Shown one piece after another: positions 8,989 to 14,890 of a stretch of DNA of 64,000 nt. The notes under the pieces were generated by a model, which saw only the letters and a program-made list of their open reading frames with translations, searched no databases and had not been told where the DNA came from. This DNA is from TPA_inf: Saccharomyces (Eukaryota). The position numbers were made by a program, and so were the translations under genes. The stretch's first letter is position 1. Every line of letters starts with the position of its first letter. The DNA lies in NCBI GenBank assembly GCA_000146045.2, contig BK006941.2, forward strand, positions 64,001-128,000, written 5' to 3'.

Positions 8989-9137
8989 CTTAAGTGATTA
9001 CACAAATGCCGAGAAGGCGAATTGGCTATACTTGTTAGTAATTATGAATTAGAAAACAGGAAGGGAACTATTCATTGTCCTGTGTGTTGTTAAAAACATC
9101 AAAAGAATAGCATCAACCAGCGTTACAGGCAACGTAC
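8989..9137 (-). other. OST5: OST5 spliceosomal intron (149 nt; GUACGU...UACUAAC...AAG)
   Basis: GTACGT at the intron 5' end (+ strand 9132-9137 acgtac), perfect TACTAAC branchpoint (+ 9034-9040 gttagta), acceptor cttAAG/AAAGAG restoring the frame to give an 86-aa protein. Confidence 0.7.
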
Positions 9138-9158
9138 GTATAATTGTTCATAAGTCAT
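9138..9158 (-). CDS. OST5: OST5 exon 1 (ATG ACT TAT GAA CAA TTA TAC = MTYEQLY) followed by 5' splice site GUACGU
   Basis: Reverse complement of 9138-9158 is ATGACTTATGAACAATTATAC, immediately followed by GTACGT; branchpoint TACTAAC is the reverse complement of 9034-9040; 3' splice AG at 8989-8990. Confidence 0.75.
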
Positions 9159-9339
9159 TGTAAACCTTGAATATGCAGGGATATCTCTCACTGCTTATGT
9201 TTTGCCTATTTACAGTATACGTTTTATGTGTACTTGCATCCTTCTTCGAAAAGTATTTGCAATTTCAAATTTCGCGTCAAAGAAAAGAGAAGACCACCCA
9301 AAAGATATCATTTCAACATAGGTAGAAATAAGGCAGAAG

Positions 9340-9711
9340 ATGATGGGACGAAACGGTATTCGGCTAGCACTGAAAAGATCTTTCAGCACTTATCAGCCAC
9401 CGGTAGTAGAGATTACGAATATAACGAAGTTATGGCCCACTCTACGACCTGAAGTTAGGGATGAAATCAAGGAATACTTACGATGGAGGATGCAAGAAGA
9501 TTGGAGACATATACCGCTGGAGGAGACCAAAGCAGCGTATTTCTTATCTTATGGACCCTGTGGTGGCAGATCCAAGGGCAACGAATGGAACGTAGGGTAC
9601 ACGGGAATGCGGATAGTGTTCAACCTTGTTTTATTTGGCGGTGCAGCGACTGCATTTTATAATTGGAAACAAGATAAAAAGCTAGAGGAACAATTAAGGG
9701 ATCTTGTATAA
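9340..9711 (+). CDS. MTC3: MTC3 (YGL226W), 123-aa mitochondrial protein
   Basis: 123-aa ORF MMGRNGIRLALKRSFSTYQPP... with a mitochondrial presequence-like N-terminus; divergent from OST5 (181 bp apart); length and position match. Confidence 0.75.
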   Translation: MMGRNGIRLALKRSFSTYQPPVVEITNITKLWPTLRPEVRDEIKEYLRWRMQEDWRHIPLEETKAAYFLSYGPCGGRSKGNEWNVGYTGMRIVFNLVLFGGAATAFYNWKQDKKLEEQLRDLV

Positions 9712-9828
9712 ATTGGAAGCAACAATAGTATATATATATATGCGCTTGCGCAGAGTACGTTCTATTCATTTTTTATCATTCATTATCTATCCCTGTAAAT
9801 AAACTAATATAAAAATTCAAAAAAATAA

Positions 9829-9902
9829 TGATTTCGCCCAGGATCGAACTGGGGACGTTCTGCGTGTTAAGCAGATGCCATAACCGACTAGACCACGAAA
9901 CC
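9829..9902 (-). tRNA. tV(AAC): tRNA-Val (anticodon AAC)
   Basis: Reverse complement reads GGTTTCGTGGTCTAGTCGGTTATGGCATCTGCTTAACACGCAGAACGTCCCCAGTTCGATCCTGGGCGAAATCA, a cloverleaf with GTGGTCTAGTCGG D-arm, GGTTCGATCC T-arm, anticodon loop CTTAACAC. Confidence 0.9.
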
Positions 9903-11474
9903 ACTTAATTGAAATATACAACCCCAAGATAAGATACTTGCTTCATAGTTTAGTTGTAAAATTGAAGTTCAGTACAACATGGCACTAGTATAAAAAAAAG
10001 TTTACCAGCCATTACTGCGCACTTACCTACATTAGTCACTCTTAGCGTATATTCTAAATACGCTTAGAGACGTCTCCTTACTATTTTTCATACGTATAAC
10101 TCTCAAAGGACAGTATAGACATATCCCTGGGGGCTTTTAGAGTGCAGCCTCTGGAGGTCTACACACGTTAATAGTCTCAAAAAATACGCTAATATTTGTT
10201 AAATAAGCGAATAGGTCTTCATGTGCGCCTGAATCAGTAGCTGTCTACATGGTAAAGAGTAATTTGTTGACACGAAAATTGATAGTTGGTTAAAAAATAT
10301 TGCAGATTCAATACTACATGAAAGACTTAATTACAAGATAGACTGATGGTGAAAAAAGAATGTACAGGTTTACCGGCAAACATTTTGAGAAATTAAAGCC
10401 CAAAAAATTTTGTGTACCTTATGATTTTCCTCCTCTGTCTAATCCAGTTCCGTATCTGGGTACTGCTGCTTCTTTGTTAAAATCGCAGCATGCTTCCCAT
10501 TGTTGGGAATTGACTTTGAGCAATATTTAGTTAGTAACTACCATATAGGTGACTGTCGTGTGCCAGCTATAACAGAAATAATCCTTTCACCATGATCATT
10601 GTAAACGATCAAAGAAAACTCTGAAGGGACTATAATGCAGTCTTCATGCAGACACTTGAAATATACGACATTAGTAGCTCCCAAGGTAGTAGGCACATCC
10701 TGCGTAAATTCTCCACAACCATGTTGTATATATAGCAGCCATAGTATGACCGAGCACATGGGACGTACGAATAAAAGATTTTCTCAGATCCCTGAACTTG
10801 AGCGTCAACCATGAATTTCTCTACTTTTTTTTCGAGCAGTAATTACCATTTTAGGTTTGATTACAATCACAGCTTCAGCAGAATTTGATTTCGACGTAGG
10901 CTATGAAGAGTTTGTCCGTATCAACCCTGATAAGACCTTCTTAGAAAGTGAGATTGGCCTTTACGTTGGTTGGACCGAGGGTAGTCAACGGCAGATAACA
11001 ACGATACCACATAATTCCACGTTGGCGGCATCACTACAAGAGTAGAATGGTTGTGGTGGTAATGGCACAGAAACCTCCATCGCTACGTCCACACTTACGA
11101 TGAGTGGTATACCTATCGCTACGATAATGAAGCACAGAAAAAGTGTACTTATCATATTACCGCAACTATGTACGTGAGGTGTAAATTATGGCTCTCATAG
11201 GACATAAGTAGGACAGAAATTGAAATTTTTGTGTTGGCAGAGCGAAAGAAACTTGAATTCGTTTATGAGGAATAAATTCTCAGCTCCATCCATGGTTCCA
11301 GTTGACGCTATGATACGCAAATTCCTTTGTGATACAGGTATCATTTCTGCAATTCCTCGTAGATTGTTGATCATACCATAAGATTGATGCTGGGGAAAGT
11401 GGAGAAGCTAACTTAACGATTGAGGCCTTGGCAAACCCTGTTAAACCAGTACTATCGGCCTTAACATGCGACTT

Positions 11475-11495
11475 AGAGAGAGAGAGAGAGAGAGA
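11475..11495. repeat. (AG)n microsatellite, about 10 units
   Basis: agagagagagagagagagaga, directly visible. Confidence 0.9.
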
Positions 11496-12893
11496 TGTTT
11501 GCGTTTGCGTCATGATAGAGATGCTACATCCACATAGTTGTTGTAGACATGTTTAAAGGTACAATTCTGCAACAACGCCTTGAAATTTTCCAAAACTAAC
11601 CAAGCACATTGGAGTTACGCTTATATAGTAAGCCACTTCACTTGCGTTGCTGTAAAGGTTGATAACTACAGGTAGGAATTAATGAATGTTAAATAAAAAA
11701 GGGAAATACCATCATCTCGACAAGAAAGGCAAAATAACTTTTCAATCTCACCAAGACGCGCGAACGAAACTCGTGCGTCTATATTAGTATCTTGACGGCG
11801 CTTTTACATCATTAAAGGTGTAATAAAACTGAAGTCATGCGATGGCACTGAAATAATCAAAGTAACTATTTGTGATGGCATGCACTGTGATATGATCTCA
11901 AGGAAAAAAATGCAATGTCGGGCGCCAATACTTATGATCATGCTTAGTCTCGACATTGACCTTGCTTGCTACAGTAATCTGGTGTCCGAGTAGTGACATC
12001 TAGGTACCGGTGAGAACTATATCTTCATTACTACACTTGTCGCCCCTGAATATTATCGCTACACACGCGAAAGAGCTCTTGTTAAAGTTACTCTCGCATC
12101 ATTGCGGTACATGTTTTGCATATTCATCTGAAGTAGGAAAGGGTATAAGCAGTATATGATGTACCATCTGCATAAGCGGTGTTTAATGCGTACCTATCGT
12201 TTAAGAACAAAAGGAACACACCCACACCCGCTCCAATACCATATTGAGAGAATAATGAGGTAACATATGCTTCTATTTGGTTCGATAAGACGGCTACTAG
12301 TCCAAAAAAAGTCAAACAACAATTTCAACAGCTACATTCTGAAGATAGAACGCATTTTTGCCTGAATATTGCAACTCAATAGACATTCTAAAGTGCTACG
12401 AGAAAAAAGCTTGTAATGGACCATGGCAATGTGCGCCATATATATATGCGGCTCCCTTATGAGTAGAAGAAAATATATGACTGGTGGTACAAAGTGGCAT
12501 GGTGGTATATAGATGTAGGAACACCATTTGAGTTTGCCATAATGATTAAATTTCCCTTTTTATAAAGAATTAGCCGCCCATAACACGAAAAATATCACAG
12601 TTGACGAAAGAAGACACGTCGCCTAAACGCGTAATGAATCGCAATATACGAAAAGCTAAACGGGTTTTTCAGAATCCTCTTACCCAGCCTTGGATAATAG
12701 TTTTGGCCGAAAAAAAAAAAAAGAAAGAAAAAAATTGAAATTTCGCGATCCGAACAAACAATGAACAGAAAAACAGAATATATATAACGCTGCCAAGCCT
12801 ATTTCTTGTTGCCGATTAATTGTTGACATCCTCTTAATTACCAAAAGAGCCTAAGAAAACAAACACACTAACCACACAGTATCTTTCGCCCGA

Positions 12894-13907
12894 ATGTCTG
12901 AATTGAAAACAGGTCATGCAGGCCATAACCCTTGGGCTTCAGTTGCCAATTCCGGTCCGATCTCTATTTTATCCTACTGTGGTTCCTCTATTTTAATGAC
13001 GGTGACTAACAAGTTCGTCGTCAATTTGAAGGATTTCAACATGAACTTTGTCATGCTTTTCGTGCAATCTTTGGTTTGTACTATAACCTTGATTATCCTA
13101 CGTATACTGGGCTATGCGAAGTTCCGTTCATTAAACAAAACAGACGCCAAGAACTGGTTCCCTATTTCCTTTTTACTGGTCTTGATGATCTACACCTCTT
13201 CGAAGGCTTTACAATACTTGGCTGTTCCAATTTACACCATTTTCAAGAATTTGACTATTATCTTGATTGCTTATGGTGAGGTTCTCTTTTTTGGTGGCTC
13301 TGTCACCTCCATGGAATTGTCATCATTTTTGTTGATGGTCCTTTCTTCTGTCGTTGCAACTTGGGGTGACCAGCAAGCTGTGGCTGCCAAGGCTGCTTCA
13401 TTGGCTGAAGGAGCAGCCGGTGCTGTTGCCTCCTTTAACCCAGGTTATTTCTGGATGTTCACCAACTGTATCACTTCTGCATTATTCGTTCTTATAATGA
13501 GAAAGAGAATTAAGTTAACTAACTTCAAGGATTTCGACACTATGTTTTACAACAATGTTTTGGCTCTACCTATTCTATTGCTGTTTTCTTTCTGTGTGGA
13601 AGATTGGTCTTCAGTTAATTTGACCAATAACTTTTCTAACGATTCGCTAACTGCTATGATCATCAGTGGTGTTGCATCCGTCGGTATTTCTTACTGTTCC
13701 GGTTGGTGTGTTCGTGTTACTTCGTCTACTACATATTCGATGGTAGGGGCTTTGAACAAGCTGCCAATTGCCTTGTCTGGTTTGATTTTCTTTGATGCTC
13801 CAAGAAACTTCTTATCTATTCTCTCCATTTTTATTGGTTTCCTATCAGGTATTATTTATGCTGTTGCCAAACAAAAGAAGCAACAAGCCCAACCTTTACG
13901 TAAATGA
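12894..13907 (+). CDS. VRG4: Golgi GDP-mannose transporter VRG4 (YGL225W), 337 aa
   Basis: 337-aa multi-pass membrane [46 protein letters not shown]...; recognised nucleotide-sugar transporter sequence. Confidence 0.9.
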
Positions 13908-14014
13908 GAACTTACGGGGGGTGCAATTTATTTTTTTTTTTTGGTTTATTTTATTTTATAGAGGCATCTAATGCAAGTAGATTTATATACAATTATACTT
14001 AAAATTGATATACC

Positions 14015-14890
<876 letters not shown>

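Follow-up and report, generated by a model that had tools for sequence, protein, structure and literature searches.

Lafontaine et al. are said to have described, in Gene in 2004, gene relics or unitary pseudogenes in the intergenic regions of Saccharomyces cerevisiae; their survey reportedly sought such relics through similarity to the yeast's own proteins. A second point of comparison is the PAU (seripauperin) gene family, most S. cerevisiae members of which are subtelomeric. The locus analysed here carries a decayed gene of the first kind together with putative flanks of a PAU gene, and it borders an integration zone for Ty1 and Ty3.

The window, that is, the whole stretch of DNA analysed, comprises 64,000 nucleotides, and all coordinates refer to it unless another sequence is named. 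A tRNA-Val(AAC) gene on the minus strand (9828-9903; ARAGORN; Rfam RF00005, 53 bits) forms the left boundary of the interval and turns its 5' side toward it, and the 337 aa VRG4 ORF begins at 12894; the gap between these edges is therefore 9904-12893 (2,990 bp). We read this interval as a gene-loss scar that holds the remains of two genes and no working element, and assign this reading a probability of about 0.75. Ancestrally, two genes would have stood between tRNA-Val and VRG4, first a minus-strand secreted orphan and then a plus-strand PAU gene, an order still present in S. kudriavzevii, S. eubayanus and S. uvarum. The two genes between the tRNA and VRG4 would have died in the S. cerevisiae lineage, and the interval would be long because most of their DNA remained. 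The scar accounts for all but approximately 0.7-1.1 kb (from 9904 or 10316 to 11016).

Extent and content of the interval

The preliminary description had pointed to an ORF-free span of about 2.9 kb (9960-12890), which sits within the confirmed gap. As it also stated, no ORF exceeds 77 aa, the largest being a 77 aa ORF at 11280-11513 on the minus strand. The longest stop-free run in the gap (90 aa) matches that of 500 dinucleotide shuffles (98 ± 19), and ORF content is therefore at the level of random sequence. The (AG)10 microsatellite of that description was recovered by TRF as (AG)10.5 at 11475-11495, and its A-runs near the VRG4 5' end, given as 12708-12722, correspond to an A-run at 12710-12734 (repeat scan and alignment). 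The distance from MTC3 to VRG4, 3,182 bp, is the biggest spacing between real genes in the window; the runners-up, read off the ORF list, measure about 2.1, 1.8 and 1.4 kb. All three of the other large gaps that were checked hold delta-like repeats, and two of them also hold a tRNA gene. The GC content of the interval (0.385) equals the window mean.

An Rfam scan of 9000-13500 returned the tRNA alone. Ten stop-free stretches of the interval gave no Pfam match, and a 632-aa concatenate of stop-free stretches, compared with 5.8 billion proteins, gave none among the best 8,000 candidates. A scan for bacterial-type promoters and terminators, with models not relevant to yeast, stayed at chance level. 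Literature on the locus, on SUT/CUT lists and on safe-harbour sites contained nothing specific to the interval.

We compared the window with the MTC3-VRG4 gaps of five sister species. An alignment of this kind among sensu stricto species had been proposed in the preliminary description, and it revealed a conserved sub-block next to VRG4 and exposed two lost genes. With blastn, only the tRNA and the VRG4-proximal block align. The gap measures 1.41 kb in S. paradoxus versus 3.18 kb here, and S. paradoxus lacks the whole middle. Among 12 S. cerevisiae sequences, nucleotide diversity (pi) is 8-21e-3 in the interval and 1.7-2.2e-3 in the coding sequences of VRG4 and SDT1 on either side, a 4-12-fold difference, with the peak of 21e-3 in the orphan-gene relic described below. 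Two other S. cerevisiae assemblies (L020 and L026) carry a 226-bp deletion of the segment 11722-11948, as placed by megablast breakpoints. Given the loss in S. paradoxus, the deletions and LTR insertions among strains and the high SNP density, the DNA of the interval appears to drift neutrally.

A decayed orphan gene and probable traces of a PAU gene

The middle of the interval (approximately 11017-11715, minus strand) is a badly decayed pseudogene of a secreted, cysteine-containing orphan gene restricted to Saccharomyces. With the S. kudriavzevii protein as query, tblastn finds it at E = 7e-4, together with weaker collinear matches on the minus strand. A frameshift-tolerant profile alignment under three gap settings scores 42.5 versus 27.3 ± 3.0, 66.3 versus 29.3 ± 3.4 and 104 versus 61.7 ± 5.2 (z of about 5, 11 and 8); none of the 150 dinucleotide shuffles per setting reached these scores, nor did any of 100 column-permuted profiles. 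The best-preserved core, 11537-11657, corresponds to family residues 27-69. Strand and position, between tRNA-Val and VRG4, are those of the ortholog in S. mikatae, S. kudriavzevii, S. eubayanus and S. uvarum. Along the alignment the relic carries at least four frameshifts and several stops and has no intact ORF, and a second S. cerevisiae assembly has the same disabled relic. The (AG)10.5 microsatellite lies inside it and varies in length among strains, with an 8-bp shorter allele in L001. The relic could still be transcribed or hold a borrowed function.

In S. kudriavzevii, S. eubayanus and S. uvarum, the orphan ORF lies on the minus strand between the tRNA and a PAU gene. S. mikatae has the intact form, of 218 aa. 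Between S. mikatae and S. eubayanus, pN is 0.37 versus a pS of 0.71 (dN 0.51), and the signal peptide and the cysteines are conserved. Judged by this pN/pS and by the conserved signal peptide and cysteines, the orphan was a real gene. Only four members of the family were found among 1.84 billion representative proteins. Pfam returned sub-threshold noise only, and an AlphaFold2 model built from the four-sequence alignment reached a pLDDT of 32 and is unusable. A possible KR site suggested Kex2-type processing of the S. eubayanus protein; the idea was dropped because the site is not conserved in the other species.

Of the six species examined, S. mikatae alone has an orphan that is neither disabled nor truncated. 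The gene was disabled by decay in S. cerevisiae, by deletion in S. paradoxus and by the change of a Trp codon to a stop in S. eubayanus; S. kudriavzevii and S. uvarum have frameshifts after about residue 115-128.

The second gene has left much less. S. kudriavzevii, S. eubayanus and S. uvarum carry a PAU gene of 124-126 aa on the plus strand, 550-600 bp upstream of VRG4, which matches Pfam PF00660 (SRP1_TIP1) at E = 3e-27. S. mikatae has a clear PAU pseudogene in the same place, which served as positive control for the PAU profile (115.7 versus 36.7). The same profile run over the whole gap of the window under strict settings gives 37.0 versus a null of 37.3, and at the expected syntenic position there is no signal under three settings. 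A match at 10948-11363 (plus strand) scored 73.2 under lenient settings, versus a null maximum of 72.3, with the strict score of 37.0 versus 37.3. We rejected it as overfitting because it is borderline, off-synteny and on the DNA of the orphan relic, on the other strand.

Two short blocks on the plus strand may nevertheless derive from the PAU locus. The block 12090-12215 is a putative remnant of the upstream, promoter-side sequence of the lost gene and matches S. kudriavzevii L013 at 13953-14078 (nhmmer, E = 2.7e-4; alignment); within it, ATCGTTTAAGAACAAAAG at 12196-12213 is conserved upstream of intact PAU genes of the sister species. The block 12330-12437 would begin with the last few PAU codons and the stop (12330-12348) and continue into the 3' flank, as judged from a by-eye alignment with modest support; the S. 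mikatae PAU 3' flank matches this region at E = 0.038 (nhmmer). The remainder of the approximately 375-bp ORF is missing from the window. Global pairwise DNA alignments, which we used to place the deletion, are inconsistent between species at this divergence. We infer, with modest support from the sequence, that the PAU coding region was almost wholly deleted and that its upstream block and 3' end persist only as weak traces.

The two ends of the interval and rival explanations

The approximately 410 bp beside the tRNA (9904-10315) are a Ty1/Ty3 target zone that is unoccupied in this strain and occupied in others. The preliminary description had expected Ty sequences 5' of the tRNA and had seen none that was recognisable. 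On the first count, other S. cerevisiae assemblies carry sigma or delta LTRs at five sites, placed by blastn breakpoints: a 340 bp sigma about 14 bp from the tRNA (9912-9917), two tandem deltas (10025-10030) and single deltas at 10054-10059, 10168-10172 and 10310-10315. The breakpoints show overlaps of 5-6 bp, typical of target-site duplications. The inserts were read directly (sigma TGTTGTATCTCAAAATGAGATA...TAATACAACA, delta TGTTGGAATAAAAATCC...TTTCTCA) and their classes were assigned by blastn. On the second count, neither nhmmer nor repeat comparison found a delta or sigma in the interval. All sites are empty in the window, and these LTRs therefore account for none of the length of the interval.

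At the other end, the block 12438-12893 is the VRG4 promoter and 5' region (plus strand; blastn and alignment). It is 83% identical to S. paradoxus, and 12564-12893 is 71-73% identical to S. mikatae and S. kudriavzevii. The alignment shows the motif TAGCCGCCCA at 12571-12580, which five of the six species share unchanged, CACGAA at 12584-12589 and ACGCGT at 12627-12632, as well as CGCGAA on the minus strand at 12742-12747. ChIP has validated VRG4 as a target of SBF, and two CRCGAA motifs lie less than 400 bp from its start site (PMC2911115). Only these final 330-455 bp of the interval are under cross-species constraint, as the VRG4 promoter.

Between the landing zone and the relic lies the ORF-free stretch 10316-11016, which has no DNA-level counterpart in the five sister species: blastn and nhmmer found no match in their gaps or in their full 20-kb loci. 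A second copy of the orphan family was not significant in 9904-11016 or 11708-12600. In S. uvarum, the orphan gene ends only 240-300 bp or so from the tRNA, so that approximately 0.8 kb in this window is extra and goes beyond the scar account. In this region, an ORF at 10813-11045 that begins MNFSTFFF and resembles a signal peptide was considered and set aside; in neither poly-T allele does its ATG share a reading frame with the hydrophobic stretch, and no homolog was found.

We weighed several other readings of the interval against the gene-loss scar. That 9904-11016, or even all of it, is ancient Ty or LTR sequence decayed past recognition fits the location, since Ty1-Ty4 integrate immediately 5' of tRNA genes. 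It also fits the five LTR insertion sites of other strains and the shared repeated DNA, taken as LTR-derived, that S. mikatae, S. kudriavzevii, S. eubayanus and S. paradoxus carry in the corresponding place. The reading is unlikely all the same: nhmmer searches with delta, sigma and the repeats of the sister species yield nothing better than E = 2 in the interval, no repeat is common to the interval and the deltas elsewhere in the window, and the central 700 bp are a gene relic. The three TG...CA pairs with a 5-bp duplication in 9880-11100 are about the number estimated for chance, and none of them starts with TGTTG. Long intergenic regions and tRNA neighbourhoods often host replication origins, yet an origin here is highly improbable. 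The interval contains no exact match to the ARS consensus WTTTAYRTTTW and a single 10/11 match, where shuffles contain 2.96 ± 1.63 and the window as a whole has 1.19 per kb, and nothing at the place is conserved across species. An extended regulatory region of VRG4 spanning the whole 3 kb would suit a gene that is cell-cycle regulated and bound by SBF (PMC2911115), and is nonetheless very unlikely. The known CRCGAA sites fall inside the conserved block 12438-12893, of which only the part from about 12564 aligns in the more distant species, and the rest is absent in S. paradoxus and unalignable elsewhere, even though S. mikatae and S. eubayanus share 94% identity in VRG4 itself. The preliminary description thus stands as an account of a long, ORF-free interval free of recognisable delta or sigma LTRs; its candidates of a decayed transposon, an origin and a large VRG4 regulatory region fail for the bulk of the DNA.

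A long noncoding RNA (SUT, CUT or XUT) could act as a transcript or through its transcription; interference with VRG4 or with the tRNA gene would be one route. Relic promoters, here the former divergent orphan/PAU promoter at approximately 11716-12330, could still fire, and 10400-12200, at 0.39-0.44 GC, is similar in composition to DNA that is transcribed or coding. We nevertheless see a slim chance for such an RNA: no Rfam family besides the tRNA is present, no sequence upstream of 12438 is conserved between species, S. paradoxus is without the region, and diversity within the species is very high, with part of the DNA deleted in two assemblies. VRG4 and MTC3 are also not named in supplements of two papers on ncRNA deletion collections, which is weak evidence. 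As for a young, de novo protein-coding gene specific to S. cerevisiae, an ab initio gene was called at about 10641-11051 (plus strand; 104 aa, spliced) in three assemblies, and one of its frames resembles a signal peptide (FFFRAVITILGLITITASA/EF). A stop interrupts the frame in both the window and L022, the poly-T run, whether of 9 or 8 T, leaves the ATG in a different frame from the signal-peptide-like stretch, the prediction depends on an unsupported intron, and the call has no Pfam match and no protein match among the best 8,000 candidates. Such a gene is scarcely credible. Improbable, taken jointly, are two further speculations: that the separate losses of the orphan mark a conflict-type gene whose loss was favoured instead of simply tolerated, and that the 0.7-1.1 kb beside the relic is foreign or de novo S. 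cerevisiae-specific DNA. If the former were true, the gene might encode, for example, a toxin or a surface or recognition protein.

Significance and relation to known systems

The gene-loss scar explains one of the longer seemingly empty stretches on a heavily studied chromosome arm without recourse to a new element; genes that died while their DNA stayed, plus a Ty target zone with no occupant, suffice. The region 9904-12437 is probably dispensable, as its absence in S. paradoxus and partial deletion in some strains suggest, and it could serve as an integration site. The comparison also records a small secreted family found only in Saccharomyces and an internal PAU locus, both of which vary in presence across the genus, a pattern from which studies of orphan-gene turnover may profit. 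Relics that have no paralog in the same genome are findable only through sister species and frameshift-tolerant profiles.

The zone beside the tRNA resembles other tRNA-proximal hot spots of Ty1 and Ty3 integration in that a sigma lies about 14 bp from the tRNA 5' end, deltas fall within approximately 410 bp and insertions vary from strain to strain; it differs from hot spots with solo LTRs in that the allele in the window is empty at every site. The sister-species counterparts of the lost PAU gene have the length typical of seripauperins (124-126 aa), whereas the window keeps putative flanks only, without similarity to PAU coding sequence, and the locus is internal. Like other taxonomically restricted secreted orphans of Saccharomyces, the orphan has a signal peptide, evolves fast and is without a Pfam domain, but five of the six species examined hold it in disabled or truncated form. 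Its remains share with relics of the Lafontaine type a degraded, frameshifted similarity to a gene, the expected syntenic place and orientation and unconstrained evolution. In contrast to those, the present relic is without an S. cerevisiae paralog, was detected only with a frameshift-tolerant profile and becomes visible only against its orthologs in other Saccharomyces species.

Locus and basic features of the interval

From its gene order, the window belongs to chromosome VII of S. cerevisiae, in the left arm. It runs from an 818-aa SAPS-domain protein, a 577-aa protein and a 958-aa protein through OST5, MTC3, tRNA-Val and VRG4 to a HAD hydrolase. Based on ORF lengths and Pfam domains we take the first three to be SAP4, SHE10 and VID30, and the hydrolase to be SDT1; MTC3 is named after cluster members that carry that name in their sources. 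The gap between tRNA-Val(AAC) (9828-9903, minus strand) and the VRG4 start (12894) comprises 2,990 bp (9904-12893) and is, in our reading of the ORF list, the longest between genes within the 64-kb window.

The preliminary description reported an ORF-free interval of about 2.9 kb, and this is real. The longest ORF in 9904-12893 is 77 aa, the longest stop-free stretch is 90 aa compared with 98 ± 19 in shuffled copies; in purely statistical terms, the interval does not code for protein. The (AG)10.5 microsatellite (11475-11495) and the A-run near the VRG4 5' end (12710-12734) were found where they had been placed. An Rfam scan matched no family besides tRNA. The GC content of 0.39-0.44 over 10400-12200 is closer to coding DNA than to typical yeast spacer, a first hint of dead genes.

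Two genes at the syntenic loci and their remains

Syntenic loci of S. paradoxus, S. mikatae, S. kudriavzevii, S. eubayanus and S. uvarum were reached via MTC3 orthologs. The suggested sensu stricto alignment succeeded only in part at the DNA level: the tRNA and the VRG4-proximal block align (12438-12893, 83% to S. paradoxus; ~12564-12893, 71-73% to S. mikatae and S. kudriavzevii), but 9904-12437 does not align to any of the five sister-species gaps or whole 20-kb loci.

Four sister species carry a minus-strand orphan gene, restricted to Saccharomyces, and a plus-strand seripauperin (PAU) gene. The orphan is intact in S. mikatae (218 aa), frameshifted and truncated in S. kudriavzevii (128 aa) and S. 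uvarum (about 119 aa), and ends at a premature stop in S. eubayanus (191 aa). PAU is intact in S. kudriavzevii (124 aa), S. eubayanus and S. uvarum (126 aa each) and a clear pseudogene in S. mikatae (score 115.7 vs null 36.7 ± 3.5). In the window, the orphan is a decayed relic and the PAU coding sequence is essentially gone. Both genes are absent from S. paradoxus, whose gap is only 1.41 kb. Here, ~780 bp of repeat DNA (10558-11337 of the S. paradoxus locus L018) lies between the tRNA and the VRG4 promoter, in the exact place of 2.5 kb in S. cerevisiae, which suggests that the orphan/PAU region was lost there through an LTR-associated deletion. This repeat DNA is common to other species' gaps, including those of S. 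mikatae and S. kudriavzevii, and is taken to be LTR-derived.

The product of the orphan ORF begins with a signal peptide, contains cysteines in the part that follows and has no Pfam domain. The only four family members among 1.84 billion representative proteins are these Saccharomyces sequences. This was a genuine gene, with a pN of 0.37 vs a pS of 0.71 in the comparison of S. mikatae with S. eubayanus. For S. eubayanus and S. kudriavzevii the values are 0.25 vs 0.70, and some constraint may persist on the N-terminal half. The gene was disabled in different ways from species to species, and the full-length 218-aa protein survives in S. mikatae alone. Both S. eubayanus strains (L014 12123-12125; L015) have a stop in place of a Trp codon conserved in the other three species, and frameshifts in S. 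kudriavzevii (L013 ~12780) and S. uvarum (L016 ~11069-11084) truncate the protein near the same point, residues ~115-128. This repeated disabling across the genus is a residual puzzle.

Orphan proteins gave weak collinear matches to the minus strand of the window (best 11657-11574, E = 7e-4), where the three frames were inspected by eye. Both strands were scored with a local profile-to-DNA alignment allowing frameshifts and stops, with dinucleotide-shuffled copies of the gap as the null. Under strict gap and frameshift settings it covers 11657-11537 (score 42.5, null 27.3 ± 3.0), under intermediate settings 11657-11267 (66.3, null 29.3 ± 3.4) and under lenient settings 11707-11017 (104, null 61.7 ± 5.2), all on the minus strand and each reached by 0/150 shuffles. 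Column-permuted profiles did not reach the observed score on the real DNA in 100 trials at each of two settings, and the plus strand scored at null level. Starting at the signal peptide, the alignment extends as far as the C-terminal PP-W motif and passes through at least four frameshifts as well as several stops. The same relic is present in a second S. cerevisiae assembly. Judged by these profile scores, a decayed orphan relic lies at about 11017-11715 (minus strand). Its N-terminal core is firm; its C-terminal part is less certain because the HSCG...C motif has two alternative placements.

The intact PAU genes lie 550-600 bp upstream of VRG4 (L013 14253-14627 in S. kudriavzevii, L014 13955-14335 in S. 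eubayanus, L016 13045-13425 in S. uvarum) and match Pfam PF00660 with E = 3e-27. These internal, non-subtelomeric copies share 94-97% protein identity across the three species. A TCGTATA-containing block, which resembles a sterol/anaerobic response element, lies upstream of PAU in S. eubayanus and S. uvarum; the S. cerevisiae remnant is degenerate. With a frameshift-tolerant PAU profile, strict settings gave no significant similarity anywhere in the gap of the window, and 11708-12600, where the gene would be expected, gave none at any setting. The flanks were recovered by nhmmer in the correct order: the block upstream of S. kudriavzevii PAU matches 12090-12215 (E = 2.7e-4) and the 3' flank of the S. 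mikatae relic matches 12359-12478 (E = 0.038). In multiple alignments, ATCGTTTAAGAACAAAAG (12196-12213) aligns with a motif ~200 bp before the start codons of the intact PAU genes, and AGCTACATTCTGAAGATAG (12330-12348) with the final PAU codons and stop. Since these anchors are only ~115-150 bp apart, where ~200 bp of upstream sequence and a 375-bp ORF are expected, we infer that the greater part of the PAU ORF has probably been deleted. Support is modest because the global alignments are unstable.

Ty landing zone and strain variation

Contigs encoding the same MTC3 and VRG4 proteins provided 11 other gap-spanning S. cerevisiae assemblies. Solo LTR insertions at five sites separate other assemblies from the window: a 340-bp sigma at 9912-9917, ~14 bp from the tRNA 5' end, two tandem deltas at 10025-10030, and deltas at 10054-10059, 10168-10172 and 10310-10315. 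The Ty remnants expected 5' of the tRNA are thus present in other strains, but the window allele is empty at all five sites. Elsewhere in the window, delta-like copies (47345-47647 and 50938-51103) bracket a 3.4-kb segment beside tRNA-His (46624-46697), forming direct and inverted repeats, and a delta fragment (~57164-57220) lies near tRNA-Lys (58268-58342); tRNA-linked LTRs of this type are absent from 9904-12893.

Two S. cerevisiae assemblies lack ~226 bp (11722-11948), and AG repeat length differs between assemblies. Among 12 sequences, nucleotide diversity is 8-21e-3 across the interval, peaking at 11017-11714, and 1.7e-3 and 2.2e-3 in the VRG4 and SDT1 coding sequences. Differences from assembly L001 concentrate at 10942-11475 of the window (12 SNPs and one indel in ~530 bp), followed by 720 bp with none, which suggests a diverged haplotype block rather than uniform drift.

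Neither the segment 10316-11016 nor the non-LTR DNA within 9904-10315 matches any sequence it was compared with. For proteins this is a weak negative, with no match among the candidates listed. Only ~240-300 bp separate the tRNA from the orphan gene end in S. uvarum, so the unmatched DNA is extra in S. cerevisiae. This leaves a residual puzzle of 0.7-1.1 kb without explanation.

Alternative readings and the VRG4 promoter

Several other readings had been proposed for the interval. A replication origin is disfavored by an ACS scan that gave no exact ARS consensus match and a single 10/11 match, below the number expected by chance. Decayed transposon sequence finds no backing in nhmmer searches, which gave no similarity to delta, sigma or sister-species repeat DNA; no convincing TG...CA element with target duplication was seen. 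Against a long noncoding RNA of conserved function stand the lack of sequence conservation, the loss of the region from S. paradoxus and a deletion that is polymorphic among S. cerevisiae assemblies. Three S. cerevisiae assemblies have an annotated spliced 104-aa gene at ~10641-11051 on the plus strand (L022 1748-2158). It has a stop inside the frame, requires an unsupported intron and starts at an ATG that is displaced from the frame by a poly-T run (8 or 9 T). The call looks like an artefact of ab initio annotation that has found its way into public protein sets.

A large VRG4 control region is not borne out either, as the SBF sites with experimental support are no more than 400 bp from the start (PMC2911115). 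They fall inside the conserved block as CACGAA (12584-12589) and CGCGAA (12742-12747, minus strand); a further motif of SBF/MBF type, ACGCGT, is at 12627-12632. Beside these promoter motifs, five of the six aligned Saccharomyces species share an identical TAGCCGCCCA (12571-12580); S. eubayanus has CCT in place of the final CCA, and the TAGCCGCC core does not vary among the six. TAGCCGCCCA fits the Ume6/URS1 consensus TAGCCGCCSA and would be a candidate URS1 site at VRG4.

We conclude that the interval is a gene-loss scar, real but ordinary. It combines one demonstrable relic (the orphan), one probable deletion footprint (PAU), a Ty target zone unoccupied in the window and a VRG4 promoter of normal size. 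As such, it belongs to the gene relics, an already known class.
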